Source of the DNA: an uncultured Methanosarcinales archaeon
GTDB lineage: Archaea > Nanobdellota > Nanobdellia > Woesearchaeales > ARS49
Direction: 5' to 3'
Assembly: GCA_964358315.1 (NCBI GenBank)
Contig: CAYHOF010000001.1
Location: 39,916 to 103,915 of the forward strand
DNA: 64,000 bases
Positions within the stretch are counted from its first letter, which is position 1; each line of letters starts with the position of its first letter. The notes under the pieces were generated by a model. That model saw only the letters and a program-made list of their open reading frames with translations, made no database searches and was not told where the DNA came from. This document shows positions 5,900 to 28,402 of the stretch, piece after piece. A program made the position numbers and the translations under genes.

Positions 5900-5900
5900 C

Positions 5901-6671: not shown

Positions 6672-6723
6672 GGATGCAGGCCACTCTTCCGTCGTATGAC
6701 TTTTAAGTCCCGCGCCCATAACA

Positions 6724-6731: not shown

Positions 6732-6754
6732 CATTCACGGGCTTGGTTTTCTCA

Positions 6755-11600: not shown

Positions 11601-14600
11601 CAGCTGCGCGTTCAAGGGCGAAGGAGGACAGAAGCTGAGCGTCGGCTATTCAAGCGGCGGCGCGCCACCCTGCCAGTCGACCATCACGTTCGACAAGGTC
11701 ACTGGCATCACGAAGATAGAATGCTACAATGAGAAAGGACCTGGGGGCACGTTGCGGCCTGCGACGCCCGAAGAGCAGCTCGCGGTGCGCTCCATCTTCA
11801 ACGCCAAGTACGCGGACAAGTCCACGTTGCCGACGACCAACACGGTCAATCTCGACGTGAGCTTCGGCGACAAGGGCATCAAGGAGATCTACCTGGACTA
11901 CATCAACAAGCACAAGGACGACAAGGAGTTCACGCTCGACGAAAAAGTCGCGCTCAGCGGACCTGACAAGGTCTCGTGCGCCGGCCTGCACCCCGCGAAC
12001 CCTGAATGCTGCGGCTACGAATACTACAAGGAATGGGGCAGCGCGTGCGGCATCCCCGGGGTCTTCGAGACGTTCGACGAGCTCAAGGAAAGTTCGTGCC
12101 TCGCGGCGCAGAACGCCAACCAGATCGGCGACTTCGAGCGCGCGAGCGGCAAGCAGTGCAAGAGCCTCTTCAACGCGGTTGCGGGCTTCTGCGAGCCCGA
12201 CAGCGGCCAGCCTGTCGGTGAGGACCTGCGCACCACCATCCGCTACCATCCCGACTACCAGAACACGCTCGCCTCGCCCGACCTCAACGAGATATACGTC
12301 CGTATCGAGCCGGTCGGGCCTGACAACGACCAGTGGCTCATCGCGCGCGGCTACATCAGCAAGACCGTCGTGCGGCAGCAGACCACCGACCCTGCCAAAC
12401 TCGCCAAGATCGAGCGCGAACAGACGGTCGCCGAGCGGCTGCGCGCGAGCAAGCAGACGACGGACCCCAAGAAGTTCCACCTCAACGCAGACCTCGAGTT
12501 CGTGCCGGACGAGGATGGCGACCTCACGCCGTTCTTCACCGAGGCCGCTTCCGCGTCCAACCCCGAACTCGCGCAACAAGTGCGCGACCTCAAGCCCGGA
12601 CAGATACCGCCAGGATTCGCCGTCGCGCTCTGCAGGCACGCCGTCAATCCCGCCGAGTGCGCGGGCGCGCCCGCACGCCGCGTCTATGCGGACATAAAAT
12701 CACGCATCGGCGTGAGCGACAAGATCTACATCGTGCGTCCTGACCGGGACGGCATCCTGCGCAGCACGCAATGCATGTGCCTGCCAGCGGTCACGAGCTA
12801 TCTCACATTCTGGAAGAACGTGCTTGGCGCGGTGCGCAACTGCTTCCAGACCGTGCGCGTGACAGGCGACGCGTCGGCCGGCGTGTGCCAGGCGGTGCTG
12901 AGCCAGTACGTGTGCGACATGCTCTTCGACGTCATGTCCTGCTTCACACAGAAATACAGCACGCCGGGCGCCGGCGCATCGTTCGGCGGCCGCGGCGGCA
13001 TCGGCGACGTGCTCGGCGCGCTCAGCAAGGCAGGCGGCGACATGCAACAAAGCATCAACTCGCGCTACGGCGACACGGCGCTCTGGCGCAGCATGTTCGT
13101 CGAGCGCAAGCTCGTGCACAGCATCTGCGCGTTCGCGTTCACCGGCACCTGGGACCTTGACGTCGCGGGCGTGTTCAAGCAGACGGTGCAGGACATCCCG
13201 CTCAAGAGCCAGGCATTCCTCTACCCTGCCGAGCGGCGCTTCATCAGCTACAACCCGATCACGCGCCCAAGCGGCCTGCCCACGTTCACCTACCACTTCG
13301 GCGTCGGCCTCGTCGCAGGCCAGGACTTGCGCTACCAGCTCGAACTCAAGTGCAGCAACAACCTGCGCTGCGAGCCGCGCGACGGCTTCGAGAACGGCAA
13401 GTGCGACTGCACCGGCCGCACCGAACAGCGCATCCTCGTCGGCGCGCCAGAACTCGGCAGCGGCTCGCTCAAGAAGAACGACATCCTCAACACCGAAGTG
13501 TTCTACACCATCCAAGGCGGCGACCCGGCGAGCGCGGTGCGTTACGACACCGCCATCCTGAGCTGGGAAGCGCTCGACCCAGGCAGCGGCCAGGTCACGC
13601 GCGACAAGAAGGAGATACCGATCCACCTCATCGGCTCGCGCCCGCCCAACTTCTGCCGCTTCGACCCGATCGGGCTCGCGTTCCGTTGCGACATCGGCAT
13701 CGGCGACTACACCGGCGCGCGCTTCATCCCGCCGATCATCGCATCCTACCCGCAGGCGCAGGACGCCTTCATCATCAACGACGAGATGACGTTCAAGGTC
13801 CCGGTGCTGCTGCAATACCCGCAGAGTCTCAAGGACCAGGCTGCCTGCATCGGCGCGTGCCCGTACACCAAGTTCATCAATTACGAAGTCAAGAACCAGC
13901 TCGGCCAGCCCATCATCGAACTGCGCAAGCCCGACGAAGTGGGCCGCAGTTCGCAATTGCGCGTCGAGAAGAACGGCGACGACACGCTCACGATCAGGCT
14001 CAATACGGGCGGCAGCAGGCGGATCAAGAAGTCCGATTTCGGCTTCACGTCCACCGCCGCGAGCCCGGTGCGGTTCGTGGATTCCGAGAGCGCACGCTTC
14101 ACCACGCCGCGCCCCACCTCGCCGCTCCAGATCGGCGTCATCCTTGTCGTGACAAAGACAGCTGCCGGCAGCTACAAGTGGGAATTGTTCGACACCGTCA
14201 ACGACGGCGAGAAGGCCGGCTCGACCGAGTCCAGCTACATCGAGCGCGCGCCTGACAAGGAAAGCAGCGGCCAGTGGGGCTGGTACCGCAAGGGCGCAGC
14301 CAGACCTGAAGGCAGCGGCCAGCTCGTGCAAGGCGACACGGTCACGACCAAGAACCCCGAGATCACGTTCAAAGTCCCGCCTTCCTTCGACCTCAAGCGT
14401 CCGGCCGAGTACTACCTGCCTGCCACGCCGATCACGGGAGCCATCGATGACATCTGCCAGAAGCTCGGCACGACGCCCGCGAAATGGAAGGTCACGTTCA
14501 AGATGTTCGACAGCACGCAAGTCGCGGGCGGCACGGCGTACGAGTACAACCCTGCCCAGCCCACCGTCGACCCGTCCTCGGGCGAGGTGCAGGAGCAGAC

Positions 14601-16281
14601 CGTCGAATTCAACGTGCTGTGCAGCGACAAGTACGTGGGTGGCGGCGGCGCGATACGCGAATGCCCGCCCAACAGCGCGCTCCAATTGACCGGCACGCAG
14701 TGCTTCTGCGGCGGGCCTGCCGAACTCGCACAGGCACGTGAGACGCTCAAGACCGACCCGCAAGCGCCGATCCTCAACTGTGGCGAAGGCGCGCCAGTGC
14801 AGCCAGGCGGCCTCTACTGTGTCTATAGGGACGAGGCAAACCCCTCTGCGGGACGCTACTGCAGCAACACGCCAGGAAGCGGCAGCGTCACGACCGGCGG
14901 TCAGACGTTCGCGCCCGCGAAGGTGACGTACTCGTCGAAGGCGCGCGAGACGAGCGCGCTGCAAGTCACCGACGTGACATCGACCATCGCATCGGAAACG
15001 TTCGAGCTGATCCCCAACAAGTACGCGCTGGTCTACGAGTACCGCCGTGCGGACCTCCCCTCAGGGACGTACTCCGCGACCGCGACCCTTGACGGCGCGC
15101 CCCTGACAGTGCAGGTCGGCACCAACGACCCGACCAAGATCATCTTCACCATCGACCTCGTCGAATCCTTGGGCCGGATCCCGGTGGGGCCGGGCGGCTT
15201 GCACACGGTCGTGCTGGGCATGTCGCGCGACCGCTCCCCGATCGGCAAGGGGCCGGAATTCCACTACACCATCGTTTCGCCCGTGCGGCTCGAGCATCGT
15301 GACGTGTGCCAGTCGTGCGCCGCCATCGACGCGTACCTGCGCGGCATCCTCACGTTCTCCTACGACGATGAACCGACCGACGACCTTTCCACGGGCGTGT
15401 CGCACAAGCTCGTCATCGCAGGCCAGGAATTCCCCAACTTCGATGTGACGAGCGAGTCGAGCAAGACCTCCTTCAAAGGGTATGTTGATGCGTACCTCTT
15501 CCACCTCAACGCGGTCGGCGCCACGGGCGGCGCGTCGTCCAGCCCGCCTTCATCCACGACGCCGTCGACAGGTTCGTCCCCGTCCACGTCCCCTTCGACC
15601 ACCACGCCATCCACCACCACGTCAAGCACGCCCACCATCAATCCATCATTCTGGTATTACCAGTCCGCGAGAGTGTACCAGAGCGGCGTGACGCCCGAGT
15701 TCGACCCTGACACGCGTTCTTCGACGCTGACCACGTTCGACACCGTGCAAGAATGGTGGCCCTCTGCCTACGACATCAACCTGGTCTATCCTGCCAGCGC
15801 GCTCAGCGGCATCGCGTCGGTCGCGGTGCGGCTCGACAGCAGGCCGCCCGTGCCTGCGGTGCTGAGCCCGCGTGATGCCAACATCATCGTCTACGAACGC
15901 GCAGGCGTGCCCTTCTCGCTCGTCCAGGAACCGGACGTCATCCATACCCTGTCGTTCGACTTCAAGGACGCGTCAGGAACGGTGGTCAAGCGTTCGCCCA
16001 CCATCCGCTTCAAGGCAGTGCCTCCTGCCGTCGTCAAATGCAGGCAGGACGATGCGGCATGCGGTCTTGCGCGCCAGACCATCCAGGCACAGGACCCGCC
16101 CGATGACCTGCACAAGGTCATCATTTCCACCAGCGTCCCGCAGGGCGAGCACCCCACGATATTCCTGCTCGGCCACGAATGGAGGCCGTTCGACCATGCG
16201 ACGCAAAGCGACCAGGTCGCGCGGCTCTACGACGAACAGTATTACCCGTACGCGCAGAGCGTGGGCATCGCGACGGCATAG
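8695..16281 (+). CDS. Giant secreted surface protein (2528 aa): FN3/Ig-like N-terminal repeats, Cys-rich core, duplicated C-terminal module
   Basis: Signal peptide. Two W-T-T-(D/N)...Y-G...H-x-(L/V)...Y FN3-like domains and several A-x-D-x-A-G Ig-like repeats. Many Cys. Ser/Thr/Pro linker near 15520-15640. Confidence 0.85.
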   Translation: MRRLLLVVLLVLCATGVSALTISHDPNPVAEVGNDYFVVEWTTDVAAISNIGYGTTTPPQQQRQTNTLVTTHRLRVDALAPGTEYFFQILAVAQGQSKIDNNNGQYYRVITGAGADTAPPLITNVTITKPDDVSAIVRWTTNEPASTLAWYGIGATTTAAQGQGPSTTHEVRLQTQRNQLYQVIVGSCDRFRNCANSTSVGFYSGVGALPLNVSIPAATKTGRVDIRGTTVVGAQVRVIVNDNPARALIVGADGSFLFSDVDMPTPTTAVIVTARDASGTTQQQQFSVVADSVPPIFTLAQPIPDYTADPILTLSGTVNEPVTITFGIVQQGAAPPRVSGLRASRITQNTVELEWTLIRDVTHYAVYRNAVRVGVVSAPRFSDSVSSGVQYKYKVTAIGATCQEGPGAETDVTTASGGLLVNQTPTETPLVCGPERQSITATGPFNIPIRLQEGQNRVVIEATDRAGNVVRIVNITTVDTKPPQILEHNLNQLSPTYTSSVEVKGRLNKQGTVLITVNKDKPIVVLTDRNGSFSKEISLSRDPTLKTTKSPISVSGETAEGWINQVTLEASDAAGRKVSVGPLPIIYSLCGFGSTFSIELGKPLPDVLTPRLILQGVQQAGFSLNASYRGGRQLSRPGTVTIRKLTLSATELKKYDHDWINLAFLNNPRKPTEGFVQLTFVPQQTNRGTRNVSLSKLEEGLSDHRKGECKVPGFGCVRMLLEIEVRAQEKIPKVFGDTRIQRTAEDFILNDVSQRTCVDVELQIDKALLLQKHIPKKFLEASVSFLDSTIEAIDTVVEPMITIGTYTTYGCMAMNAVLYGMFFSERLTCDFASIEAKGPVAAAFEAVIGKGNAIHDVAEVGLCESAFKPTGTTGPTTTIPSSPTPDAAADTQKAYLACKKCQETIARRKALEAKMRVVCDRVACPSAPTLQTYIRDNQKNNPLKQVVLPGLAQVQKPINNVQGLIYRGNSCAFKGEGGQKLSVGYSSGGAPPCQSTITFDKVTGITKIECYNEKGPGGTLRPATPEEQLAVRSIFNAKYADKSTLPTTNTVNLDVSFGDKGIKEIYLDYINKHKDDKEFTLDEKVALSGPDKVSCAGLHPANPECCGYEYYKEWGSACGIPGVFETFDELKESSCLAAQNANQIGDFERASGKQCKSLFNAVAGFCEPDSGQPVGEDLRTTIRYHPDYQNTLASPDLNEIYVRIEPVGPDNDQWLIARGYISKTVVRQQTTDPAKLAKIEREQTVAERLRASKQTTDPKKFHLNADLEFVPDEDGDLTPFFTEAASASNPELAQQVRDLKPGQIPPGFAVALCRHAVNPAECAGAPARRVYADIKSRIGVSDKIYIVRPDRDGILRSTQCMCLPAVTSYLTFWKNVLGAVRNCFQTVRVTGDASAGVCQAVLSQYVCDMLFDVMSCFTQKYSTPGAGASFGGRGGIGDVLGALSKAGGDMQQSINSRYGDTALWRSMFVERKLVHSICAFAFTGTWDLDVAGVFKQTVQDIPLKSQAFLYPAERRFISYNPITRPSGLPTFTYHFGVGLVAGQDLRYQLELKCSNNLRCEPRDGFENGKCDCTGRTEQRILVGAPELGSGSLKKNDILNTEVFYTIQGGDPASAVRYDTAILSWEALDPGSGQVTRDKKEIPIHLIGSRPPNFCRFDPIGLAFRCDIGIGDYTGARFIPPIIASYPQAQDAFIINDEMTFKVPVLLQYPQSLKDQAACIGACPYTKFINYEVKNQLGQPIIELRKPDEVGRSSQLRVEKNGDDTLTIRLNTGGSRRIKKSDFGFTSTAASPVRFVDSESARFTTPRPTSPLQIGVILVVTKTAAGSYKWELFDTVNDGEKAGSTESSYIERAPDKESSGQWGWYRKGAARPEGSGQLVQGDTVTTKNPEITFKVPPSFDLKRPAEYYLPATPITGAIDDICQKLGTTPAKWKVTFKMFDSTQVAGGTAYEYNPAQPTVDPSSGEVQEQTVEFNVLCSDKYVGGGGAIRECPPNSALQLTGTQCFCGGPAELAQARETLKTDPQAPILNCGEGAPVQPGGLYCVYRDEANPSAGRYCSNTPGSGSVTTGGQTFAPAKVTYSSKARETSALQVTDVTSTIASETFELIPNKYALVYEYRRADLPSGTYSATATLDGAPLTVQVGTNDPTKIIFTIDLVESLGRIPVGPGGLHTVVLGMSRDRSPIGKGPEFHYTIVSPVRLEHRDVCQSCAAIDAYLRGILTFSYDDEPTDDLSTGVSHKLVIAGQEFPNFDVTSESSKTSFKGYVDAYLFHLNAVGATGGASSSPPSSTTPSTGSSPSTSPSTTTPSTTTSSTPTINPSFWYYQSARVYQSGVTPEFDPDTRSSTLTTFDTVQEWWPSAYDINLVYPASALSGIASVAVRLDSRPPVPAVLSPRDANIIVYERAGVPFSLVQEPDVIHTLSFDFKDASGTVVKRSPTIRFKAVPPAVVKCRQDDAACGLARQTIQAQDPPDDLHKVIISTSVPQGEHPTIFLLGHEWRPFDHATQSDQVARLYDEQYYPYAQSVGIATA

Positions 16282-16284
16282 ACC

Positions 16285-17085
16285 ATGAAGACGCTTTTCA
16301 CACCGTTGCAGAAAGCATTCGCAGGCATGCGCAAGCGTCCGGCGCTCGTCGCGCTCGCAATCCTGGTCGACGTGCTCTTCCTCGTGTCATTCGGCTTCGT
16401 GTATGGCTTGTTGTTCGCGGAGACGGCGGACCATCTCGACGCGCTCAACACGATCCTTGCCGAGCAGACCGCGCAGTTCGTCAGCACGCAGGACGCGACC
16501 ACGTTGACAGCAAATCCAGATATCGATCTGCATTACGCGGGCGTGGTGCGCGGCATCGGCCTCATTTTACTCGTCCTCTATATACTGTGGTCGCTCTCGC
16601 AAGGCGTCAACTGGTGGGTCGCGCACACGCTGGAGGAGCGCACCGTGCCCTTCATGCGTTTCATCATGCGGTCCTTCATCGTCAACCTGGCATGGGTGGC
16701 GGTCTTCGTCGCCATCCTCTTCGCCATCGCGTGGCTCTCGCAACAAAGCCTGCTCGCGCCCGTCCCGCTCATCGGTCCCGGCGCCTTCGAGAGCGCCACC
16801 CTCGTCCTTGTCGTCGTCCTGCACTATTTCATGATCGTCTCCTACGCGTACCTCACGCACGCGCGCCCGCTACGCACGGCGCTGTCGCACGCCGTTCGTG
16901 ACGCGCGCCGCTTCGTGCCGGTGTTCATCATGGGCGCGGTCGGCATCATGCTCGCAGGATACCTCATCATCACGATATCCCCCATCAATTACGTGGCAGG
17001 CATCGCGATACTTTTGGTCATCATGCTGCCATGGTTGGCATTGAGCAGGACGTGGGCATCAGCGCTCGCGCATTCGACACCATGA
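16285..17085 (+). CDS. Polytopic membrane protein, paralog of 5901..6671
   Basis: LVDVLFLVS vs FIDALFYLS; SQGVNWW..FMRFIMR vs FQAALWS..ARFMLRY; similar length and TM pattern. Confidence 0.8.
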   Translation: MKTLFTPLQKAFAGMRKRPALVALAILVDVLFLVSFGFVYGLLFAETADHLDALNTILAEQTAQFVSTQDATTLTANPDIDLHYAGVVRGIGLILLVLYILWSLSQGVNWWVAHTLEERTVPFMRFIMRSFIVNLAWVAVFVAILFAIAWLSQQSLLAPVPLIGPGAFESATLVLVVVLHYFMIVSYAYLTHARPLRTALSHAVRDARRFVPVFIMGAVGIMLAGYLIITISPINYVAGIAILLVIMLPWLALSRTWASALAHSTP

Positions 17086-17720
17086 CGACGCTCGACACAG
17101 TGGTGGAAAAGAAGATCAAGCCCATGCTTGACGAGGCCATGCGGCGCTACCTGGGCGTGCGCATCGAGGAGCTCACCACCGACGTGTCGGATCGCCTGCG
17201 CCGCAGCGCGCTCCTCGACATCCCGGTCGACGTGAACGTCCCGTTCAAGAAGGCCAAGCTCGCGTTCAAGAAGAATTACCTCATCCGCCTCTTGCAATTG
17301 CACTTCGGCAACATCGCAGAGGTCGCGCGCCTCTCGGGCGTGGATCGCAGGAGCGTGCACCGTCTCGTGCGCCAAAGTCCGGTGGTGGAACGCGCCCGCA
17401 AGGAACTGCACCGCCGCGACTTCTACGTCTCCGACGAGGTCAGCACCATCATCCAAGAGTCCGCCGAGCATTACAAAGGGTCGCTCGCGCCTGAGAAGTA
17501 CAGGGCATTCTATGACCAGGTGCCCATCATGGGCAAAGTCATCGCCAAGGAACTCCCGCTCGAACTCCCCACGCTCGAGCAGGCGGAACGCGCGTGGGAA
17601 CGCCGCTACTTCGAGGCCGCGCTCAAGGAATTCGGCCCTTCCCCTGTCGCCGTGGCGCGCAAGATAGGCCTGCGGTACGAGACGCTGCACCGCAAGCTCA
17701 AAACGCACGGCATCCAGTGA
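17082..17720 (+). CDS. Protein with two Fis-type (HTH_8-like) helix-turn-helix domains
   Basis: ATGA overlap at 17082. FKKNYLIRLLQLHFGNIAEVARLSGVDRRSVHRLV and WERRYFEAALKEFGPSPVAVARKIGLRYETLHRKLKTHGI both match the NtrC/Fis C-terminal HTH pattern. Confidence 0.8.
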   Translation: MTTLDTVVEKKIKPMLDEAMRRYLGVRIEELTTDVSDRLRRSALLDIPVDVNVPFKKAKLAFKKNYLIRLLQLHFGNIAEVARLSGVDRRSVHRLVRQSPVVERARKELHRRDFYVSDEVSTIIQESAEHYKGSLAPEKYRAFYDQVPIMGKVIAKELPLELPTLEQAERAWERRYFEAALKEFGPSPVAVARKIGLRYETLHRKLKTHGIQ

Positions 17721-17876
17721 GACATCGTTCTGTCGTGCATGAGTTCGTCCATCTCCATGTTCGTCATCGCGCGGTGATTCCTTTTGTCGACGGACGCTAC
17801 AAATTAACTACCGAAGAATTTATATACAATTGCACCATTTTCAAATGACAACAAAATGGGTTGAGGTGTGTTCCAG

Positions 17877-19109
17877 ATGGTTTCCAAGAATGTCATCGTC
17901 GTTCTCGCAGTACTGCTACTCGTAGCGCTCTCGGCATGTTCGGTGCCGCCACGCTCGGGCGCCGCGAAGTCCGCAGATTGCGCGGACCAGGAATCGCTGC
18001 CGGACATCGACGACATCGGCATCGACGAGGGCATCCAGAACGCGGCCGGCGCACTGGGCGACGCCGAGGGCAAGACGACGAACAAGAGCGCGCCCGCGGC
18101 CCAAAGCCCGCTCATCAAGAAAACCGTCACCGAAGGCGACCTTGTCGTATTCCCCAACCTCAACGCCTCGGACCCTGATGGCGACAAGATCACGTTCACG
18201 TTCGAGAAGCCGCTCGACAAGTCAGGCAAGTGGCAGACCAAGGCCGGCGATGCGGGCGAGTATCCCATCACGATCACGGCGAGCGACGGCAAGAACACCG
18301 TCACGCAGAAAGTCCTCATCACTGTCAAGGCCGCGAACAGGGCGCCGCTCATCACAGGTCCCAACGCGATCAACGCCAAAGAAGGCGAGAACGTCGTGCT
18401 CAACCAGGAATTCAACGACCCTGACGGCGACAAGGTCGCGGTCACGTACGGCGGCTGGATGACCGAACCCATCAAGAAGACCACGTTCAACGACGCAGGC
18501 GACCACGACGTCACCGTCAAGGCGTCGGATGGCAAGCTCTCGAGCGTCAAGAACGTCACGGTCAAGGTGGCGAACACCAACCGCGCGCCCGCCATCGGCA
18601 CGCTCACGGCGATCAGCGCCACCGAAGGCGACAAGGTCGTCATCGTGCCGCAAGCAAGCGACCCTGACGGCGACAAGACAAGCTTCATTTTCAGCAAGCC
18701 CCTTGACGACCGTGGCGTCTGGCAGACCAAGGCAGGCGACGCAGGCGCGTACACCGTCAATGTCACGGTCAGCGACGGCGCGCTCACCGACAGCGCATCC
18801 GTCAAGATCACGGTCGCCAAGCTCAACCAGGCACCGCTCATCAGCGGCCTCAGCGACGTCACCGTCGACGAAGGCCAGACCGTCACCCTCAGCCCCAAGG
18901 TCAGTGATCCTGATGGCGACAAGGTCACGCTGGTCTACAGCGGCTGGATGACGAGCGCAACCAAAGCGACCAGTTACGGCGACAGCGGCACGTACGAAGT
19001 CACCCTCACCGCGTCCGACACGGCAGGCAATTCCGCCAAGAAGACGATCAGCGTGACCGTGAACGACCAGAACAGGCCGCCGCAGTTCAACCCTGACGCG
19101 TTCAAGTGA
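17877..19109 (+). CDS. Lipoprotein with four Ig/cadherin-like (NxAP..DPDGD) repeats
   Basis: GAGGTG SD 8 nt before ATG 17877, lipobox-like LSAC, four DPDGDK repeats in A-B-A-B arrangement. Confidence 0.85.
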   Translation: MVSKNVIVVLAVLLLVALSACSVPPRSGAAKSADCADQESLPDIDDIGIDEGIQNAAGALGDAEGKTTNKSAPAAQSPLIKKTVTEGDLVVFPNLNASDPDGDKITFTFEKPLDKSGKWQTKAGDAGEYPITITASDGKNTVTQKVLITVKAANRAPLITGPNAINAKEGENVVLNQEFNDPDGDKVAVTYGGWMTEPIKKTTFNDAGDHDVTVKASDGKLSSVKNVTVKVANTNRAPAIGTLTAISATEGDKVVIVPQASDPDGDKTSFIFSKPLDDRGVWQTKAGDAGAYTVNVTVSDGALTDSASVKITVAKLNQAPLISGLSDVTVDEGQTVTLSPKVSDPDGDKVTLVYSGWMTSATKATSYGDSGTYEVTLTASDTAGNSAKKTISVTVNDQNRPPQFNPDAFK

Positions 19110-19166
19110 ACATTTTTATTGTTCTTTTCTTTCTTCAATAATAACTAGCCAACCGAGGTGTTTTTG

Positions 19167-20120
19167 ATGCAAGACGGACGGATAGACCTTTCTGGACATT
19201 TGAAACCATGCAGTGCGTACAAGGACCTGCCTGGACCCACGATCCTCGCGGCCGGCGACCTCGGAATCTACTTCGTCAATATGGAGAAGTTGTTGGAGGA
19301 CGGCGGCGCATGGGAGAAATTCGGCGACGACTCTCGGCTCATGATCATGCATGCATGTCAGCAATATGAGCAGGTTCCCGGTTTCCGTCAGGTTATCGGC
19401 GTCATGGCAGACCAGATGCGGTATCATCTTACTCGTGCCGTCCAGGGTGAACGCAAGGCGGTCTCCGGTGGCGCACGTCGCGACTGGCTCTTCTCCGGAC
19501 CGATAGCCCACGTGCTCAATCTGCCGCACATCTCGTGCTACAAACAGGAGCCGGGCAAGCCTGACCGTATGGAGTTCGTTCATCCTGACATGTCTGTCGA
19601 TGTAGTTGATACTCTCTCTGGAGTGTACGTCGGCCACGCCGTCGACATGACCACCGAAGGGTCCAGCATCCTCAGAACTGACAAGGACGGCACGCTCAAA
19701 GGCTGGGCTGCCATGATCAGGAACAAAGGCGGACGCATCAACGACGTCGTCGCCGCAGCCACACGCCTACAAGGCGCAGAACAACGCTTGGCACCGTACG
19801 GTCTGCACATCGATGCCTTGGTCAAGATCGACGAAGAGTTCCTGCGCAATCACAGCGCGAACCCTGAAGCCGCAGTCGAATATTTCAAGAATCCGACAGC
19901 ATTCAGCAGGAACTATCTCAAGGAGAACGGTGCATTGGCGTTCGTCAAGGACTTCGATCCTGCAGGCAAACGCGTCGACAAAGCACGCGAGTTCATGAAA
20001 AAGTACGGCAGGTTCCTGGTCGAGATCGACAAGTTCGATGAGCTCGCAACAACCGTTCAACTGACGTACGGCAAGCCCGTCCATGAGATCGTGGGCAAGG
20101 ACGTAGTATTGCATTTGTAG
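19167..20120 (+). CDS. pyrE: Divergent orotate phosphoribosyltransferase-like protein
   Basis: GAGGTG SD. PRPP-loop variant VGHAVDMTTEGSS and C-terminal GGRINDVVAAATRLQGAEQRL resemble OPRT. Adjacent to pyrF. Confidence 0.55.
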   Translation: MQDGRIDLSGHLKPCSAYKDLPGPTILAAGDLGIYFVNMEKLLEDGGAWEKFGDDSRLMIMHACQQYEQVPGFRQVIGVMADQMRYHLTRAVQGERKAVSGGARRDWLFSGPIAHVLNLPHISCYKQEPGKPDRMEFVHPDMSVDVVDTLSGVYVGHAVDMTTEGSSILRTDKDGTLKGWAAMIRNKGGRINDVVAAATRLQGAEQRLAPYGLHIDALVKIDEEFLRNHSANPEAAVEYFKNPTAFSRNYLKENGALAFVKDFDPAGKRVDKAREFMKKYGRFLVEIDKFDELATTVQLTYGKPVHEIVGKDVVLHL

Positions 20121-20129
20121 GAGGTCATC

Positions 20130-21071
20130 ATGAGAACATTCGCAGAGAAATGGTTCGAAGCGGTCAAGCGCAATGATTCAGTGCTTTGTTTAGGTCTTGA
20201 TCCTGCCGAGTTCGAGATGGGACGAGGCGATAAAGGACTCCCTCAAGGCACGAATAAACTCGCGTGGTCGCTTGACTATATCGATGCAGGTGCGCCTGAT
20301 TGTGCTGCAGTCAAGTTCAACAAGAAATATTTAGATGGGCCGGCAGATAACTACGCTCTCAACACCATTTCGATACGTGCGCATACCCGTGGCCTTGCCG
20401 TGATAGAAGACAACAAGCTCGCCGATATTGCTGACTCCAATGACGCTGGCGTTTACAACGCAGCGCATCACAGGGACGTGGACGCGGTCACGTTCGCGCA
20501 GTACGCAGGCAACCTGAAACAGTGCGCAGACCAGGCGCATGCGCACGATATTGGCGCCATTGCCATGTGCATCATGAGCAACCCTGAGTTTGAGCAAGAG
20601 AAGCTCAAAGCAGTGCCGCTCCGCAGCCGTGAAGAAGCACAAACGTACCGTCCTGAGGACGTTTTCCACGTGGTCTACAAGACGTCACCGGCAGCATGGA
20701 TCCCTGCAGGAGAGCCGTGGCCCAACGTCTTCCAGTACATTCATGTGGCACAAAATGCGCGTGAGTGTGGCATCGACGCTCTTGTCATCGGTGCGCCAAG
20801 CGGTAAGGACAGCCCGAAACCGAACCATATCAAGGACGAGGAAATCGCGGCTGTGCGTCACTACGCAGGGCCTGACATGCTGATCCTTCTGCCGGGCGTG
20901 GGCGCTCAAGGAGGCGAAGCAAGCGCGATATGGAGGCACTTCGCACATGACCATGTCATCGTACCTATCAGTCGTGACCTCATGTTCCCGAAGAAAGGCA
21001 CGATCGCGGAAGCAGCCAATCGCTACAAGTGCATGCTGAACACATTGCGATATAACCAACTGCGCAACTGA
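20130..21071 (+). CDS. pyrF: Orotidine-5'-phosphate decarboxylase
   Basis: LCLGLDP, AVKFN, DNKLADI (DxKxxDI), LLPGVGAQGG and ISR motifs; GGAGGT SD. Confidence 0.88.
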   Translation: MRTFAEKWFEAVKRNDSVLCLGLDPAEFEMGRGDKGLPQGTNKLAWSLDYIDAGAPDCAAVKFNKKYLDGPADNYALNTISIRAHTRGLAVIEDNKLADIADSNDAGVYNAAHHRDVDAVTFAQYAGNLKQCADQAHAHDIGAIAMCIMSNPEFEQEKLKAVPLRSREEAQTYRPEDVFHVVYKTSPAAWIPAGEPWPNVFQYIHVAQNARECGIDALVIGAPSGKDSPKPNHIKDEEIAAVRHYAGPDMLILLPGVGAQGGEASAIWRHFAHDHVIVPISRDLMFPKKGTIAEAANRYKCMLNTLRYNQLRN

Positions 21072-22317: not shown

Positions 22318-24732
22318 TCAGAGACGGCGCACGGCCTCTTCGATGCGTTGCGTGGCCTCGAGTGTCGACAATCCTTTGACGCTCAGCGGCCTGCCCACGA
22401 TCAAGGTGGCGTCCCCGAAGCGCGGCACCCGCGCCTGGTTGGGCAGCACGTCCTCGATGCCGAGCAGCTTGAGCGGCACGACAGGGATGCGCAGTTCTGT
22501 CGCGAAGAGCCCGATGCCTGGCATGAACGGAAGGATGGGGCCTGAGGTGCGCCTGCGGCCTTCCGGGAAGATCAAGATGTTCCAGTCATGGTCGACCAGG
22601 TGGCCGGTGAAGCGCAGCGCGCGCCGGAACCCCTTGAGGTGCGGCAACGGGTAGAGGTTGATGAGCGCGGTGGTCAGGTGGAAGAGCACGCCCATGCCCG
22701 GATAACGGAAGCGGAGGTTCTCGTCGAAGAAGTATTCCTGCCATGCCGCGACCGCGATCCGATGCGAATAGCGGTGCGGCAGGTGGTCGAAGATGAAGGG
22801 CACGTCGAAATGGCTCTGGTGGTTGCAGACGAACAACAGCGGTCCTCGCACGCCATCGAGGTTCTCGCTGCCGATGATGCGCGGGCGCGCGAAGAGGCGC
22901 ACGAATGGGAAGATGAATGCGTGCTGCACGACGAACCGGAGAGTACGCGCAGGCCACGACAGCTGCCACGTGCCGTACAACGACCGCCCGTTCGCGGCCT
23001 GCACTGTCGTGACCATGGCTTCGACCTCGCCGACCTTGGTCGTCGGCGTGATGCGGTCCTCGTCCAGCTCGATCCCGAACTCCTGTTCGAGCAACGACGC
23101 GAGCTCGACCCGGTCAAGCGAGGAGAGGCCCAGCTGTTCGAGCGTGACGCCATGACGTACAGTCTTACTCGTGAGGCGTGCGAGGATGGCGTCGAAACGG
23201 TCCTGCGGCGCAGCCGCGGCAGTCCTGCCGCCTTCGTCGCGCACCCATTCCTTGACGACGAACTTGCGCACCTTGAGCGTGGTGGTGCGCGGGAAGTCGG
23301 GCTGGGACCACACGCTGAACCCCGCGATCTTCTGGTCGAAGCCCGCGTTCGCCTTGTCGATGATATCCTTTGCCTTGGCGCCCTTGTCAAGGATGAGCAC
23401 GGCATGGATCTCCTCGCCCTTCTTGCTCTCGAGGCCGATCACGCAACTGGCGCGCACGCCAGGGATCTTGCCGAGCACGCGCTCGATGTCCTCAGGATAG
23501 ACGTTGATGCCGGCCGGCGTCACGATCATGTCCTTCTTTCGTCCTTTGAGCACGAGGAATCCTTCGGGGTCGAACTCGCCCACGTCCCCTGTGCGCATCC
23601 AGCCATGATCGAAGAGTTCTTTTGTCTTTTTTGGATTCTTGTAGTAGCCAGGCGTGATGCTCGGCCCACGCGCCTGGACCTCGCCGTCATTGATGCGGAT
23701 CTCGACACCATGCAGCGGCCTGCCCACCGCGCCGACCTTTTTGTGGCCAGGAAGGTTGAGCGTGAGCACGGGCGCGCTTTCCGTCAAACCATAGCCCTGG
23801 ATGACGGGGATGCCGATCGTGTCGAAGAACGTCTCGAGCGCGGGATCGAGCGGCGCGCCACCGCACACGAAATAATCCACCCGTAACGCCCGTCGCACCG
23901 GTGCGAACATGAGTCTACGTAACGGTGAAGGCCAATGCTTGGCGCGTTCGACCATCGCAGGCAAGGTCGGTGCTTTTGCGAGGATGCTTGCGTGCAGCAG
24001 CTGCAGCACGCGCGGCACCACGATCATGTTCGTGACGTGCTCCTCCCGCAACGCCTCGAGCAACACTGCTGCCTTGAGGCGTTGAATGTACACGATGGTC
24101 GCGCCGTTGAGCAATGGCAGGTAGAGTCCGATGGTCTGTTCGAACACGTGGGAAAGCGGCAGCACGGACAGCAGCACGAAGTCCTTGTGCAGCGTCTTCG
24201 TGCCGTCGATGGCCTGCATGTTGGCCACGAAATTCTTGTGCGTGAGGATGACGCCTTTTGGTTCGCCTGTCGTGCCTGACGTGTAGATGAGTTGTGCGAC
24301 GTCGTCGTCCGCGACGCGCGCCCGCACGCCCGGCTCGGTCCGTTCCACCTCATCGAGCAATTCCTCGACCAGGATTGTGCGTTGCGCGCGGACGCGCGGC
24401 TTGATGCGTGTCTGGAACACGAGCGACGCCTTGACGTGCTTGTCGATGCTGCGCGCCAGCGCGACATCCGAACGCATGTCGACTGGCACGACGATCACGC
24501 CGGCCATGTACGAGCCCAGCAGGACGATGACGTACTCAAGGCCGTTTTGCGCCCACACCATGACGCGGTCGCCCTTCTTGACGCCGTGCTTGTCCAGCAG
24601 CCCCACAAACCGCATGCACAGCTCGTGGAGACGCTTGTACGTGCACGTGAACCGACGATAGTCCCTGCGGTCGACGATGGCTATCTTCTCGGACTCCTTG
24701 TTGGCGTCCAGAAGTTCGACGAGCGTGTTCAT
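22318..24732 (-). CDS. Fusion of long-chain acyl-AMP ligase (ANL), acyl carrier protein and PlsC-type acyltransferase
   Basis: IYTSGTTGEPKG, GYGLTE, RTGD, TTLKVRK (ANL); LGLSSLDRVELASLLEQEFGIEL (phosphopantetheine Ser); NHQSHFD and FPEGRR (PlsC blocks). Confidence 0.9.
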   Translation of the reverse strand: MNTLVELLDANKESEKIAIVDRRDYRRFTCTYKRLHELCMRFVGLLDKHGVKKGDRVMVWAQNGLEYVIVLLGSYMAGVIVVPVDMRSDVALARSIDKHVKASLVFQTRIKPRVRAQRTILVEELLDEVERTEPGVRARVADDDVAQLIYTSGTTGEPKGVILTHKNFVANMQAIDGTKTLHKDFVLLSVLPLSHVFEQTIGLYLPLLNGATIVYIQRLKAAVLLEALREEHVTNMIVVPRVLQLLHASILAKAPTLPAMVERAKHWPSPLRRLMFAPVRRALRVDYFVCGGAPLDPALETFFDTIGIPVIQGYGLTESAPVLTLNLPGHKKVGAVGRPLHGVEIRINDGEVQARGPSITPGYYKNPKKTKELFDHGWMRTGDVGEFDPEGFLVLKGRKKDMIVTPAGINVYPEDIERVLGKIPGVRASCVIGLESKKGEEIHAVLILDKGAKAKDIIDKANAGFDQKIAGFSVWSQPDFPRTTTLKVRKFVVKEWVRDEGGRTAAAAPQDRFDAILARLTSKTVRHGVTLEQLGLSSLDRVELASLLEQEFGIELDEDRITPTTKVGEVEAMVTTVQAANGRSLYGTWQLSWPARTLRFVVQHAFIFPFVRLFARPRIIGSENLDGVRGPLLFVCNHQSHFDVPFIFDHLPHRYSHRIAVAAWQEYFFDENLRFRYPGMGVLFHLTTALINLYPLPHLKGFRRALRFTGHLVDHDWNILIFPEGRRRTSGPILPFMPGIGLFATELRIPVVPLKLLGIEDVLPNQARVPRFGDATLIVGRPLSVKGLSTLEATQRIEEAVRRL

Positions 24733-25058
24733 CTCGTCACCAGCACCACGTGCGCTATCGCGTACTCGTGATCATGGCTGATGCTCAGGTCGCACTCAGT
24801 GATGGCGTCCTTGAGCGCGCCGGTCATGACGATCATAGGCCTGCCGGTCGCTTTCTTCTTGATCTCGATGTCAAGCCAGCGTGGACCGTCATCGATCGCC
24901 TTGAAGAACGCCTCCTTCGCGGCGAAAAGCCCCGCGAGGTGCTGTGCATCATGCTTCTTCTGCTCGGAGGGATGGAATACTTTGGCGAGAAACGCGGGAT
25001 TGTCCATGAGCCGCGCGAAACGCGGCACGTGCACGATGTCCACACCTGTCCGTAGCAT
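24729..25058 (-). CDS. acpS: Holo-ACP synthase (4'-phosphopantetheinyl transferase)
   Basis: GVDIV, LAGLFAAKEAFFKA, GRP, LSISHDHEYAIA; ATGA overlap with the ligase fusion. Confidence 0.93.
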   Translation of the reverse strand: MLRTGVDIVHVPRFARLMDNPAFLAKVFHPSEQKKHDAQHLAGLFAAKEAFFKAIDDGPRWLDIEIKKKATGRPMIVMTGALKDAITECDLSISHDHEYAIAHVVLVTR

Positions 25059-25080: not shown

Positions 25081-25088
25081 TATTTAAA
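25081..25088 (-). promoter_or_regulatory. TATA box (TTTAAATA) upstream of acpS
   Basis: 23 nt upstream of ATG 25058 on the minus strand. Confidence 0.55.
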
Positions 25089-25734
25089 CGTTCTGAGCGT
25101 GGGCTGTCGTCGGATGTTTTTCCGCGCGGCGCACGAGATGCGAGATGCCATACGTCACGAGCCCCAAGAACAAGGTCAAGAGCGCGACGCGTAGCACCAC
25201 TGCCTCGAAGAACTCGGGCGGGAAGAGCGTGATGATCTTGGCGTTGTACGCGAACACCCAGTTGCCCTGCGGGAACGTGATGGTGTGGAATGTGTTCCAT
25301 AGCGCGTTGAACGGGACGATGGCGCTTGCGATCATCAGCGTGACAGTGAGGAGGCCGCCCCATTCGAGCGCGCTCGCGAGCTTCCTTCTGCGCCACGCCC
25401 GCGCGAGCAGCACCGTCCACAACCCCGTCCAGAGCGTGGTGAGCGCGAGGCCGCCGTGCCAGACGTTCTTGACGTCGCGCAAATGCTGCAGTTCGGCGTC
25501 GCTCATGCCTTCGATCGTGGGCAGTTCCTGCGTGTCCGACGCGATGTAGGAGTAGTAGTAATCGAGCGTCGCGTGCGCGTTGAGCGGGTCACGCGAATGC
25601 CGTTCGATGAGCGAGTGCAGGAGCGGCGCGGTGTGCATGATGATGCCGGCCGACACCGAGAACAGGACAAGAGGGAGAAGGATGATGATGGCGATCAGGT
25701 TCATACGATCAACGCCTTTCGTCGTGTTGTTCAT
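25084..25734 (-). CDS. DUF1461/TIGR01906 membrane protein, lipoprotein intramolecular transacylase (Lit)-like
   Basis: ELQHLRDVK and FHTITFPQGNWVF..IITLFPPEFF motifs with both conserved His; 4 TM; ATGA overlap with metG stop. Confidence 0.65.
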   Translation of the reverse strand: MNNTTKGVDRMNLIAIIILLPLVLFSVSAGIIMHTAPLLHSLIERHSRDPLNAHATLDYYYSYIASDTQELPTIEGMSDAELQHLRDVKNVWHGGLALTTLWTGLWTVLLARAWRRRKLASALEWGGLLTVTLMIASAIVPFNALWNTFHTITFPQGNWVFAYNAKIITLFPPEFFEAVVLRVALLTLFLGLVTYGISHLVRRAEKHPTTAHAQNV

Positions 25735-27704
25735 CGTATGGTCGCTCCGTCGTCGATGTCCACTTCCACATGCCCGAGCGGCGTGACGAGCTGCTGGCCG
25801 TCCACCACGACACGCTTGAGCTTGGTGGTGAGCTTCGCGGCGACGACGTCGTCGATGCCCACCTGTCCTGTGCCTGGCCGCACGCCGTCGATCGTGACAG
25901 GCGCGCCTGGCTCTGCGTCCTTGGCCTCAAGCACCTTGACCTTGCCGTCCTTGTCCGCGGCGAGCAGCATGCCTTGGCTCACGACACCGCGCAATTTCGC
26001 GGGCTTCATGTTGGCCACGATGATGATGTGCTTGCCGCGCAACTCTTCAGGTTGGTAGTATGCACGCAGGCCGGCGACGAGCGTGCGTTCCTCGTTGCCG
26101 ACGTTGATCTTCAACACGTAGAGCTTGTCCGCCTCGGGATGCGGCATGACGTCGAGCACGTGCGCGACACGCAGGTTGAGCTTCGCGAACGGGTGCTCTT
26201 GCTTCTTCACGTCGAGCTTCTTCTGTAATACCTCGCTCTTCTTGACGTTGCCTGTCGTGGTGTGGTCGAAGTGCGCTTCTTCAAGCGATGTCACGGATTG
26301 TCCGAGCTGCGCCGCTGCCTTCGCGGCCGTCTGCGGGATGAAGGGCGTCAGGTAGTGCGTCGCGACACGCATGCTTTCCAGGATCGTATAAAGGACCGTG
26401 CCCAGACGTTTCTTGTCCGTGATTTTCCAGGGCGTGGTGTCGGTCATGTACTTGTTGACCAAGCGCACGAACGTGAAGATGTGATCAAGCGCTTTGTGGA
26501 ATTCCAATGCGTCCAGCGCATTCTCGACATGCGGGCCCAGTGCATTGGCCGCGGTCTCGATGTCCTGCTCGTGCTCGGTCAACTCACCCATCGCAGGCCA
26601 TTCTCCTGCGAAATTCTTCTCGACAAGCGTGAGCACGCGCGAGAGCAGGTTGCCATACGCGTCCGCAAGGTCCGCGTTCACGTGCTTGACGAGCTCGGCC
26701 TCGCTGAAGTCGCCATCGTGACCGAACGGGATGTTGTAGAGCAAAAAGTACCGGGATGCATCGGTGCCGAAACGCGCGACGAGGTCCTTTGCGGTGATGA
26801 AATTGCCCAGCGACTTGGACATCTTCTGGCCCTCGATCGTGAGCCAGCCATGCGCATAGACTTGTCGTGGCAGTTCGATGCCGGCGCTCATGAGCATGGC
26901 AGGCCAGATCACGCAGTGGAACCACGCGATTTCCTTGCCCACAAGATGCGCGTCGGCGGGCCAGAACGTCTTGAAATCACCTTTGGCGTCAGGCCACCCC
27001 AGCGCGCTGATGTAGTTGGTGAGCGCGTCGAACCAGACGTAGACGACGTGGCCCTTGCCGATCGGGAACGGGATGCCCCATGCCACTGACGTGCGCGAAA
27101 TGCTGAGGTCCTTGAGGCCTTCCTTGACGCGGTTGATGAACTCGTCCTGCCTGAACTGCGGCGCGATGAATCCAGGATGCGCCCTGTAGTGCGCGAGGAG
27201 CTTGTCCTGATAGTTGCTGAGCCGGAAGAAGTAGGAGGGCTCCTTGATCGTCTTGACCTCTTTCTTGTGCACAGGGCACTTGCCTTCCACGAGCTCACGT
27301 TCGAGATAGAACTGTTCGCACCCGCTGCAGTACTTGCCTTCATAATCTCCCAGGTAGATGTCGCCCTTGTCATGCACGACCTTGATGAGCGCCTGCACTG
27401 CGCTCTCGTGCTGTTTGTCCGTCGTGCGGATGAATTGGTCATGGCTGATATCAAGCAGTTTCCACGCCTCCTTGAACGCAGGGACCACGCCGTCCACGAA
27501 CGCCTTTGGCGTCTTGCCGGCCTTGGTCGCCGCTTCTTCAATCTTCTGGCCGTGCTCGTCCGTGCCTGTGAGGAAGAACACCGTGTCGCCTTTGAGGCGG
27601 TGGTAGCGCGCGAGCACGTCCGCCGCGATCGTCGTGTACGCATGACCGATATGCGGCACGTCGTTCACGTAATAGATCGGCGTCGTCACGTAAAACTTGG
27701 CCAT
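25731..27704 (-). CDS. metG: Methionyl-tRNA synthetase with C-terminal tRNA-binding (Trbp111-like) domain
   Basis: KFYVTTPIYYVNDVPHIGH, GTDEHG, YVWFDAL, KMSKSLGN, and C-terminal ANMKPAKLRGVVSQGM. True start 27704. Confidence 0.96.
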   Translation of the reverse strand: MAKFYVTTPIYYVNDVPHIGHAYTTIAADVLARYHRLKGDTVFFLTGTDEHGQKIEEAATKAGKTPKAFVDGVVPAFKEAWKLLDISHDQFIRTTDKQHESAVQALIKVVHDKGDIYLGDYEGKYCSGCEQFYLERELVEGKCPVHKKEVKTIKEPSYFFRLSNYQDKLLAHYRAHPGFIAPQFRQDEFINRVKEGLKDLSISRTSVAWGIPFPIGKGHVVYVWFDALTNYISALGWPDAKGDFKTFWPADAHLVGKEIAWFHCVIWPAMLMSAGIELPRQVYAHGWLTIEGQKMSKSLGNFITAKDLVARFGTDASRYFLLYNIPFGHDGDFSEAELVKHVNADLADAYGNLLSRVLTLVEKNFAGEWPAMGELTEHEQDIETAANALGPHVENALDALEFHKALDHIFTFVRLVNKYMTDTTPWKITDKKRLGTVLYTILESMRVATHYLTPFIPQTAAKAAAQLGQSVTSLEEAHFDHTTTGNVKKSEVLQKKLDVKKQEHPFAKLNLRVAHVLDVMPHPEADKLYVLKINVGNEERTLVAGLRAYYQPEELRGKHIIIVANMKPAKLRGVVSQGMLLAADKDGKVKVLEAKDAEPGAPVTIDGVRPGTGQVGIDDVVAAKLTTKLKRVVVDGQQLVTPLGHVEVDIDDGATIR

Positions 27705-27726
27705 GCCATCATTCCACGGAAGCGTG

Positions 27727-27734
27727 TTTATAAA
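27727..27734 (-). promoter_or_regulatory. TATA box (TTTATAAA) upstream of metG
   Basis: 23 nt before ATG 27704. Confidence 0.6.
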
Positions 27735-27775
27735 CCTTGCTCGGGAATGGCGCTGCAGTAGATGACTGTGTGCGC

Positions 27776-28402
27776 TTATCGTTTCCGTTGCGAGTAGAAG
27801 TAGTACAGCAAGTACAGAATCAGCGTCGCGCCGATGATGTAGACAGGCCATGGTATCCCTGCGGGCGGCCGGACCGCGGGCGGCAGCGCGCAATCCGCAT
27901 CAAGGCCCTTCGCGCAGTCAGGATCGCACGCACCGTCCTTGTACGGCAGGCAGATCGCGTCCGGCCTTGTTATGGGGCAGTCGTCCTGGCAGCTGATGCT
28001 GTTCTCGAAACCCTCGCACTTGTCGTTGCGCTCGCACAACAGTCTCAGGTCGAAGGACGCCACCACGTCCTTGCCACGCACGACCTCGACCACGCCCCGA
28101 TTGCCAGGATAAGGCAGGCGGCTGGTGACCGTCCATGATGAAAGCGGTGCCTGCGCGTCAAGGAACCCGAACGTCACAGGGACGTGCGTCTCGTAGAGCG
28201 TCTGCCCTTCGAGCGCGAGCCGCAGCGCGTCGGGGAGCGCGCGTTGGTTCTCCCCGTCGATGCTCGTCAGCGTGACGGTCACGTTGTCGATACTGGCGCT
28301 GCCGTCTTTGTAGAAGGTCGTCTCGACGACGAGCGCGGTCTCCTGCGCGTGCACCGCGGCCGCGAGCAGCACCAACATCATCATGATGGTCAACGGTCTC
28401 AT
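27776..28402 (-). CDS. Secreted Cys-rich protein with C-terminal membrane anchor
   Basis: Start at ATGA overlap (MRPLTIMMML), signal peptide, CERNDKCE..ENSISCQDDC and DGACDPDC motifs, TM plus basic tail. Confidence 0.75.
   Translation of the reverse strand: MRPLTIMMMLVLLAAAVHAQETALVVETTFYKDGSASIDNVTVTLTSIDGENQRALPDALRLALEGQTLYETHVPVTFGFLDAQAPLSSWTVTSRLPYPGNRGVVEVVRGKDVVASFDLRLLCERNDKCEGFENSISCQDDCPITRPDAICLPYKDGACDPDCAKGLDADCALPPAVRPPAGIPWPVYIIGATLILYLLYYFYSQRKR

Follow-up and report, generated by a model that had tools for sequence, protein, structure and literature searches.

The window analysed here, a 64,000-nt stretch of contig CAYHOF010000001.1 (positions 39,916 to 103,915, forward strand) from an uncultured archaeon of the order Woesearchaeales, carries a minus-strand gene cassette for an AcpS-type phosphopantetheinyl transferase, a ligase-carrier-acyltransferase fusion protein, and a transporter of the major facilitator superfamily (MFS). 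These three genes stand at the end of a row of five with gaps of no more than 25 nt, the first two encoding methionyl-tRNA synthetase (MetRS) and a Lit-like membrane protein (Table 1). The stop codon of acpS and the start codon of the fusion gene share 4 nt (ATGA at 24729-24732), and the MFS gene starts 23 nt past the fusion stop codon. The TATA-box-like element TTTAAATA in front of acpS shares bases with the stop codon of the Lit-like gene upstream. The motif TTTAWATA occurs eight times in the window against 0.16 expected, a number reached in none of 100 shuffles. Four of them are followed after 20-23 nt by a listed open reading frame (ORF) start (25058, 30387, 31119, and 57810), which is the spacing of leaderless archaeal transcripts. 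An earlier reading made from the letters alone (the sequence-only reading) had described acpS as translationally coupled to a three-domain protein and preceded by an archaeal TATA box, and both observations were confirmed. The two-gene unit that it proposed has to be enlarged to three genes, the conserved MFS gene included.

Table 1. Features at the cassette locus (positions in the window)
Feature	Position	Strand	Basis or remark
Methionyl-tRNA synthetase	25731-27893 as listed	-	likely start ~27700
Lit/TIGR01906-like membrane protein	25084-25734	-	Pfam Lit 2.4e-16; TIGR01906 1.4e-16, under cut-off
TATA-box-like promoter element TTTAAATA	25081-25088	-	22 nt 5' of acpS ATG
AcpS-type (group I) 4'-phosphopantetheinyl transferase, 109 aa	24729-25058	-	Pfam, TIGR00556, and 1F7L matches
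Fusion protein, 804 aa, ligase + carrier + acyltransferase	22318-24732	-	three Pfam domains
Fusion residues 1-497, ANL adenylating domain (fatty-acid ligase type)	23242-24732	-	Pfam AMP-binding
Fusion residues ~510-575, acyl/peptidyl carrier domain, Ser538 in GLSSL	23008-23205	-	Pfam PP-binding
Fusion residues 609-804, PlsC/AGPAT-type acyltransferase domain	22321-22908	-	Pfam Acyltransferase
MFS transporter (Atg22-like/UMF1 type), 406 aa	21074-22294	-	Pfam MFS_1 + ATG22

The fusion protein matched AMP-binding (PF00501) at residues 10-364 (8.9e-76, 255.6 bits; cut-off 29.9), PP-binding (PF00550) at 530-570 (25.3 bits; cut-off 20.8), and Acyltransferase (PF01553) at 619-754 (3.4e-13, 50 bits; cut-off 23). 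All motifs named in the sequence-only reading were found in the translation: the ANL motifs YTSGTTGEPKGV (150-161), GYGLTE (313-318), TGD (381-383), and GRKKD (397-401), the carrier motif GLSSL (535-539), and the transferase motifs NHQSHFD (637-643) and FPEG (722-725). The fusion was aligned with 13 homologues (14 rows) and then with 92 (93 rows). In the larger alignment, all 93 rows were identical at T151, S152, G153, T154, E318, D383, R398, and K487 of the ligase, at S538 of the carrier, and at N637, H638, D643, and P723 of the transferase, while E724 and G725 were each kept in 92 rows. The residues of the ligase motifs A3, A5, A7, A8, and A10 were invariant across the alignment, and the residue before Ser538 was D, S, or T in 89 of the 93 rows. 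Since the catalytic residues are invariant in every row, all three activities of the fusion are under purifying selection across the family.

The fold, the core motifs, and the catalytic Lys487 place the first domain in the ANL superfamily. Its score with the long-chain-fatty-acid-CoA ligase model PRK06187 of NCBIfam was 6.1e-87, under the cut-off, and its closest solved relative was the fatty-acyl-CoA synthetase FadD13 of Mycobacterium tuberculosis (3R44, 5.1e-48); there was no fatty acyl-AMP ligase (FAAL) among its 60 best solved relatives. From this likeness to fatty-acid ligases, a fatty acid is predicted to be the substrate. The second domain is a carrier domain with the conserved Ser at the start of helix 2, matching the acyl_carrier model TIGR00517 at 1.2e-6, under the cut-off. 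In an AlphaFold2 model built from the 14-row alignment (mean pLDDT 64.9, pTM 0.42) a helix begins at residue 538, at low confidence. The third domain, with its HX4D dyad and FPEG block, belongs to the PlsC/AGPAT family. Its closest solved relative is Thermotoga maritima PlsC (5KYM, 4.6e-10, chain residues 56-236), with which, as with other members of the AGPAT and lysophospholipid acyltransferase (LPLAT) families, it shares these motifs. Unlike PlsC, which uses free acyl-[acyl carrier protein (ACP)] or acyl-CoA, the window domain is fused behind its donor, which would be a tethered thioester. The domain scored 39.9 bits (3.1e-10) against a cut-off of 102.95 with TIGR00530 and thus falls outside this equivalog, and the acyl-[ACP]-phospholipid O-acyltransferase models of NCBIfam were its second-best match (PRK06814, 1.2e-8).

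ElbD of Myxococcus xanthus also joins ligase, carrier, and AGPAT-like domains in one polypeptide, and it has a fatty-acyl reductase (NAD-binding) domain between the carrier and the transferase. By contrast, no reductase or NAD-binding Pfam domain was detected at E<=0.01 in the 804-aa fusion, and its 14 aligned homologues (~800-845 aa) also lack such a domain, which leaves no route to ether bonds and sets the fusion apart from ElbD. It is therefore highly improbable that the cassette is an ElbD-like entry to alkyl-ether lipid synthesis, in spite of the shared domain combination and of the ElbD BLAST matches from Woesearchaeia given in PMC11868695.

The 109-aa ORF upstream of the fusion matched ACPS (PF01648; 9.1e-13, 48.7 bits; cut-off 25) and TIGR00556 (72.8 bits; cut-off 45.35), and with the acpS model TIGR00516 it scored 54.1 bits, just under the cut-off of 59.8. 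It has a single ACPS domain and is a group I phosphopantetheinyl transferase whose closest solved relative is Bacillus subtilis AcpS (1F7L, 6.5e-10). The translation contains GVDIV, AAKEAFFKA, and SISHD, so that both the KEA motif and the Mg-binding Asp expected near the N-terminus are taken to be present. A whole-genome profile search found only one PP-binding match in the host genome, the carrier domain of the fusion. Since the fusion thus holds the only detectable PP-binding domain of the genome, AcpS is its private activating enzyme. Archaea are generally devoid of ACP and AcpS, and ether-linked isoprenoid lipids are part of their definition. Among control genomes, AcpS was found in all 10 bacteria and in none of the 4 archaea.

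The co-occurrence of the genes was followed in a sample of 251 genomes of the order, including the unpublished G229 and G233. A genome was counted as fusion-bearing if it had a match (E<=1e-40) that covered the transferase domain or was cut by a contig end. The fusion was matched at this threshold in 25 genomes, of which 20 (~8% of the sample) had true fusions and 5 only the ligase part. In all, 39 of the 251 genomes matched PF01648. Of the 20 fusion-bearing genomes, 19 had AcpS (18 by Pfam, and G126 by phmmer in an adjacent position), and in the remaining one, G188, the fusion lies at a contig end; only 21 of the 231 genomes without the fusion had it. In 17 of the 20, AcpS neighbored the fusion directly or shared a short cluster with it. 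It was absent from the other genome of the genus, G001, and from four further genomes of the same family, all lacking the fusion.

Outside the order, a scan of species-representative genomes revealed 595 fusion loci, of which 80 were kept for the analysis of flanking genes. Seventeen of these 80 had an AcpS homologue within the flanks (16 at E<=1e-12), mostly in the candidate phyla radiation (CPR), Chloroflexota, Spirochaetia, and archaea. Most come from lineages in which fatty-acid synthesis is expected to be missing. The nine Geobacterales loci had no AcpS near the fusion in the fetched flanks.

The third gene encodes an MFS transporter (MFS_1, 2.4e-34; ATG22, 9.9e-23). In half of the 20 genomes of the order that bear the fusion, the window's and nine others with homologues of 40-64% identity, this gene adjoins the fusion, and four gene orders occur: AcpS-MFS-fusion, MFS-AcpS-fusion, AcpS-fusion-MFS (as in the window), and MFS-fusion-AcpS. 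The survival of the linkage through rearrangement is good evidence that the transporter shares a function with the fusion, and the MFS gene belongs to the cassette as its third member. At E<=1e-20, matches to it were found in 13 of the 20 fusion-bearing genomes versus 16 of the 231 others, but such ratios are descriptive because related genomes are not independent, and they overstate the support for the functional proposal made below. In G002, which has no fusion, an MFS homologue lies beside a stand-alone PlsC-like gene. For the MFS protein together with the transferase part of the fusion (residues 575-804), the predicted complex scored 0.00 against a mark of 0.32, which counts neither for nor against binding.

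The host genome consists of 1.40 Mb in 47 contigs and is 96.5% complete with a contamination estimate of 1.6%. Genomes of its order, which has at least 136 families, measure 0.6-2.0 Mb. The fusion family is mostly bacterial, and G001 and 24 genomes of the window's family lack the cassette, so the locus could be suspected of being bacterial DNA that was misbinned or chimerically assembled into an archaeal genome. However, both flanks are syntenic with G001: to the left of the locus a repeat protein has 58% amino-acid identity, and to the right the Lit-like protein has 54% and MetRS 69%. The distance of codon usage from the genome mean, ranked among 660 long ORFs, puts the fusion at the 9th percentile and the MFS gene at the 46th. 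The earlier claim of host-like codon usage thus holds for the fusion, while AcpS with its 109 codons is too short for a judgement. The spacing of the TATA box from acpS is the same as at other genes of the window. The TATA-binding protein (TBP) repeats are present twice in the genome, and among the controls the TBP family matched only the four archaea. The genome also encodes a CarS-like cytidylyltransferase. Moreover, the fusion recurs across the order and falls in a strongly supported clade without bacterial rows (see below). Because of the synteny, the archaeal TATA motif, and the host-like codon usage, misbinning or chimerism of the locus is very unlikely, and the archaeal origin of the contig, which the sequence-only reading had advised to verify, is upheld.

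The best 120 database matches to the fusion all paired PF00501 with PF01553, and the best named homologues carried the labels Woesearchaeota and Pacearchaeota. The 80 loci kept from the scan include Geobacterales, Chloroflexota, Acidobacteriota, Planctomycetota, a Waddliaceae genome, TM6, and, among CPR, Parcubacteria, Saccharibacteria, Levybacteria, and Uhrbacteria. The unit is not peculiar to one archaeon but occurs in 20 genomes of the order and is common to CPR and many other bacteria. Within the order its distribution is patchy: none of the 24 other genomes of the window's family has the fusion. In a phylum-wide sample it was present in 12 of 301 genomes, all of the same order. The uncharacterized bacterial proteins annotated as "AMP-binding protein" (~824 aa; Geobacteraceae, Chloroflexota, Acidobacteriota, CPR, and TM6) have the same three domains, align over the full length with 33-43% identity, and share the invariant residues, and those of CPR have an adjacent AcpS. 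They differ from the window's fusion in that the MFS neighbor is seen only in archaeal loci and in that the clade of the window protein contains only archaeal-labelled or unnamed rows.

The sequence-only reading had called for phylogenies of both genes; trees of the fusion were built by maximum likelihood (quick search, LG+G4, SH-aLRT support only), the long-branched L047 being left out of the second. They place an archaeal clade within a mainly bacterial family. The window protein belongs to a clade of 17 rows (SH-aLRT 100) comprising 9 archaeal-labelled, 8 unnamed, and no bacterial sequences, and this clade nests in a 27-row group of the same make-up (SH-aLRT 94). Other archaeal sequences branch with rows of CPR, Chlamydiota, and Planctomycetota. 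The picture is that of a bacterial-type module which appears to have entered the DPANN archaea more than once and then to have moved or been lost patchily. The window's copy is old enough for full adaptation to its host.

Two sequences in this set carry doubtful labels. The fusion of L032, titled Methanosarcinales, is identical to that of G189, a genome of the window's order, with ACPS matches at the same coordinates, and L053, titled "Nitrosomonas", groups with an Uhrbacteria sequence. The submitters' taxon labels on such genomes are unreliable. In 15 of the 80 loci (including L024, L026, L030, L031, and L042), mostly of Chloroflexota, a gene for a protein of the metallo-beta-lactamase fold lies directly 5' of the fusion; it is absent from the window locus and may be a lineage-specific partner of the fusion.

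Analysis of lipid metabolism in the host genome, where absence calls are strong but not absolute given its completeness, revealed no ketoacyl synthase and no PlsY. True GpsA was not found either, the PF01210 matches being Rossmann segments of a UDP-glucose-dehydrogenase-like ORF. On the archaeal side, geranylgeranylglyceryl phosphate synthase (GGGPS) and the glycerol-1-phosphate dehydrogenase family were missing, as was digeranylgeranylglyceryl phosphate synthase (DGGGPS): of the two UbiA proteins, one resembles decaprenyl-phosphate phosphoribosyltransferase and the other is a carotenoid-type prenyltransferase. The search for plsY/gpsA versus GGGPS/DGGGPS, suggested in the sequence-only reading, thus returned neither set. 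The late steps of archaeal phospholipid synthesis appear to be kept all the same: a CarS-like cytidylyltransferase gene (8.3e-23) lies beside that for a CDP-alcohol phosphatidyltransferase (G000 C14:11936-13212, minus strand), whose best match is archaetidylserine synthase. Two further PF01553 proteins, both stand-alone and outside the window, are encoded at C1:108407-109378 (minus strand; closest to the PlsB core, TIGR03703, 2.4e-11) and C6:10473-11654 (plus strand; closest to AGP_acyltrn, 1.6e-7, with non-canonical spacing at the HX4D site). The organism probably activates and decorates lipid backbones but is unable to make either hydrocarbon-glycerol core de novo. The idea of the sequence-only reading that an exogenous fatty acid is loaded onto the archaeon's own carrier and used to acylate a lipid fits this genome, in which neither a ketoacyl synthase nor another PP-binding domain was found.

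These stand-alone acyltransferases raise the question of whether the cassette supplies a pathway that makes bacterial-type phosphatidic acid de novo. In this pathway the fusion would activate scavenged fatty acids and, together with the two enzymes, acylate glycerol phosphate twice, with CDP activation and head-group transfer following. The PlsB-core-like and AGP_acyltrn-like proteins and the CDP-alcohol phosphatidyltransferase would be in keeping with such a route. However, PlsY and true GpsA were not found, the cytidylyltransferase is CarS-like rather than CdsA-like, and a tethered carrier is ill-suited to serve enzymes in trans. Moreover, similar stand-alone acyltransferases occur in relatives lacking both the fusion and AcpS, and are thus independent of the fusion. 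We consider this route improbable.

It is rather likely that the three genes instead form a self-sufficient cassette for fatty-acid activation and acyl transfer, with its own archaeal promoter and working in the manner of LplT/Aas. In the proposed scheme, AcpS would use CoA to place the phosphopantetheine arm on Ser538 of the carrier domain. The ANL domain, using ATP, would adenylate a free fatty acid, probably one with a long chain, and thioesterify it onto this arm, and the PlsC-type domain (His638/Asp643) would then acylate a hydroxyl group of a membrane lipid on the cytoplasmic side. A lysophospholipid from other cells would be the likeliest acceptor, and the adjacent MFS protein would deliver or flip this acceptor, or the fatty acid. 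By this means the archaeon may maintain ester lipids taken from other cells.

The unit would thus resemble the bacterial LplT/Aas system of lysophospholipid re-acylation, except that its carrier is built in and its phosphopantetheinyl transferase is private. Aas of Escherichia coli likewise combines an ATP-dependent acyl-carrier ligase with a PlsC-type transferase and is genetically coupled to an MFS transporter, and LplT and Aas form a complex, according to PMC11416262. In the LplT/Aas model, the MFS protein flips lysophospholipid inward and Aas re-acylates it with an ACP-bound fatty acid. However, the fusion is not an Aas orthologue, and the domain order is reversed. The transferase corresponds to positions 86-141 of 719 in the Aas profile PRK08043 but is C-terminal in the window's fusion; Aas works with free ACP, whereas here the carrier is in cis, with a private AcpS and in an archaeal host. 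The cassette would thus work like Aas/LplT but is not Aas/LplT.

Several observations weigh against the proposed function. The fusion is far under every Aas cut-off of NCBIfam, scoring 13.8 bits against 886 with PRK08043, and with PRK06814 154.9 bits as a whole and 33.4 for the transferase part against 1349. The Atg22-like MFS protein does not classify as LplT (16.5 bits against a cut-off of 297 with PRK11195), and it matches generic efflux MFS and Atg22-like Atlas clusters best. Half of the 20 fusion-bearing genomes of the order do not have it beside the fusion, and at E<=1e-3 it was found there in none of the 80 loci from other lineages. There was no CoaBC match above the cut-off in the host genome, and therefore the CoA for AcpS must be salvaged. 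The CarS-like and phosphatidyltransferase genes point to archaeal-type polar lipids, and since these genes are kept, a lysophospholipid is not the sole candidate acceptor. Open-access papers and preprints yielded no biochemistry on any member of the fusion family.

PlsC-family domains acylate many acceptors, and the acceptor here could be other than a bacterial lysophospholipid. Acylation of an archaeal mono-ether lipid would yield an ether/ester hybrid; glycolipids, proteins, and small molecules (amino-lipids or secondary metabolites, for instance) are further candidates. Besides the retained CarS-like and archaetidylserine-synthase-like genes, an acceptor of this kind would agree with the absence of a recognizable lipid-transporter signature in the MFS protein and with the Lit/TIGR01906-like membrane protein encoded directly upstream. 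Against this, the transferase has glycerolipid acyltransferases as its nearest relatives, both solved and curated, no non-ribosomal peptide synthetase or polyketide synthase genes occur nearby, and the Lit-like gene is kept in the cassette-less G001 and is unlinked to the fusion elsewhere. We regard such an acceptor as unlikely, though less so than a role in de novo phosphatidate synthesis.

Lit is a bacterial lipoprotein transacylase. The Lit-like gene was considered as a member of the cassette and rejected because of its retention in G001 and its lack of linkage to the fusion elsewhere; near the fusion at other loci there was one weak match (3.9e-5) in 80 loci and none in 26. The gene overlaps MetRS by 4 nt, and the same pairing is kept in G001.

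The general idea is already in print. PlsC homologues of DPANN archaea are known and were interpreted as transfers from Bacteria (PMC6431249), and the Woesearchaeia matches to ElbD were taken as a hint that lipids obtained from a bacterial host are modified by these archaea (PMC11868695). Fab genes and cyclopropane-fatty-acid synthase are known from Woesearchaeota genomes (PMC10936187), a FAAL survey lists one FAAL of Woesearchaeota and FAAL-AGPAT contexts in Actinomycetota (PMC12820801), a 2026 survey reports no LPLAT in the archaeal genomes examined there (PMC13500770), and CPR cells are described as lysolipid-rich, with no ACP-requiring enzymes recognized (PMC7242380). No description of the AcpS-MFS-fusion cassette was found in open-access papers and preprints. 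New here are the MFS gene as a member of the unit, the tracking of the fusion by AcpS, and the single client of AcpS. Overall, the interpretation given in the sequence-only reading is partly supported, and the observation on which it was built is confirmed.

The remaining part of the window contains several other features. G001 lacks the region corresponding to window positions ~19.1-25.07 kb and has instead, on the other strand, a gene for a fused orotate phosphoribosyltransferase-orotidine monophosphate (OMP) decarboxylase (472 aa) and an NT5C-like gene (L100 11133-13148). The 19.1-25.1 kb block is bordered by no direct repeat, tRNA, or integrase of the sort that marks a mobile element, the only repeats around it being short and chance-like, and Rfam and tRNA scans of the whole window gave no matches. 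In the window, positions 19158-21071 on the plus strand hold a 320-aa ORF without Pfam domains, and after it, on the other strand, comes a 313-aa ORF resembling OMP decarboxylase, so that the two species of the genus are not alike in their pyrimidine genes. At 861-19109 (plus strand) there are large Pfam-less ORFs of 1156, 523, and 651 aa, an ORF of 2528 aa (8695-16281), and a 413-aa protein with DPDGDK repeat units; all of these are probably surface proteins. The GC content falls to 0.45-0.52 at 42000-47000, compared with ~0.59-0.62 around it. This stretch holds short Pfam-less ORFs, an HNH endonuclease (44433-45119), and two divergent TTTATATA boxes at 42329-42353, and may be an integrated foreign element.

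A minus-strand carotenoid-type cluster at 47906-52825 encodes phytoene synthase, a phytoene desaturase-like oxidase, a polyprenyl synthase, and a fusion of a lycopene-cyclase domain with a UbiA prenyltransferase (PRK13105, 253 bits; cut-off 217); we take it to resemble the gene sets for C50 carotenoids. A GAF-domain adenylate/guanylate cyclase (Guanylate_cyc, 2.8e-27) is encoded at 56090-57694 on the minus strand of this small-genome archaeon. A metatranscriptome run labelled as an aquifer metagenome contained a single 251-nt contig, at depth 2, identical to window positions 22970-23220 within the fusion gene. It is weak evidence and does not establish transcription or habitat, as DNA may be present in such libraries.

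The cassette thus provides an archaeon in which neither a fatty-acid nor an archaeal-core route was found with a full set for charging and esterifying a fatty acid, transporter included. It circulates among DPANN archaea and CPR bacteria, tiny-cell radiations thought to live off the lipids of other cells, and it is a concrete, cloneable candidate for the repair or remodelling of scavenged lipids in such cells. The question of ester lipids in Archaea becomes testable at the bench with three genes and a short list of acceptors. A wider and more doubtful possibility is that some DPANN archaea of this order make or keep up a part of their membrane with fatty-acyl ester lipids, either bacterial-type phospholipids acquired from a bacterial partner and re-acylated in the archaeal cell or ester-bearing hybrids built on a scavenged ether or lyso backbone, and that the mobile cassette, exchanged between DPANN and CPR symbionts, would be the entry point. 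If true, the lipid divide would be crossed naturally in Archaea at the present day, and the cassette would be a marker for archaea with bacterial hosts. The cassette offers a good experimental handle both on how ultra-small symbionts salvage lipids and on the matter of archaeal ester lipids.

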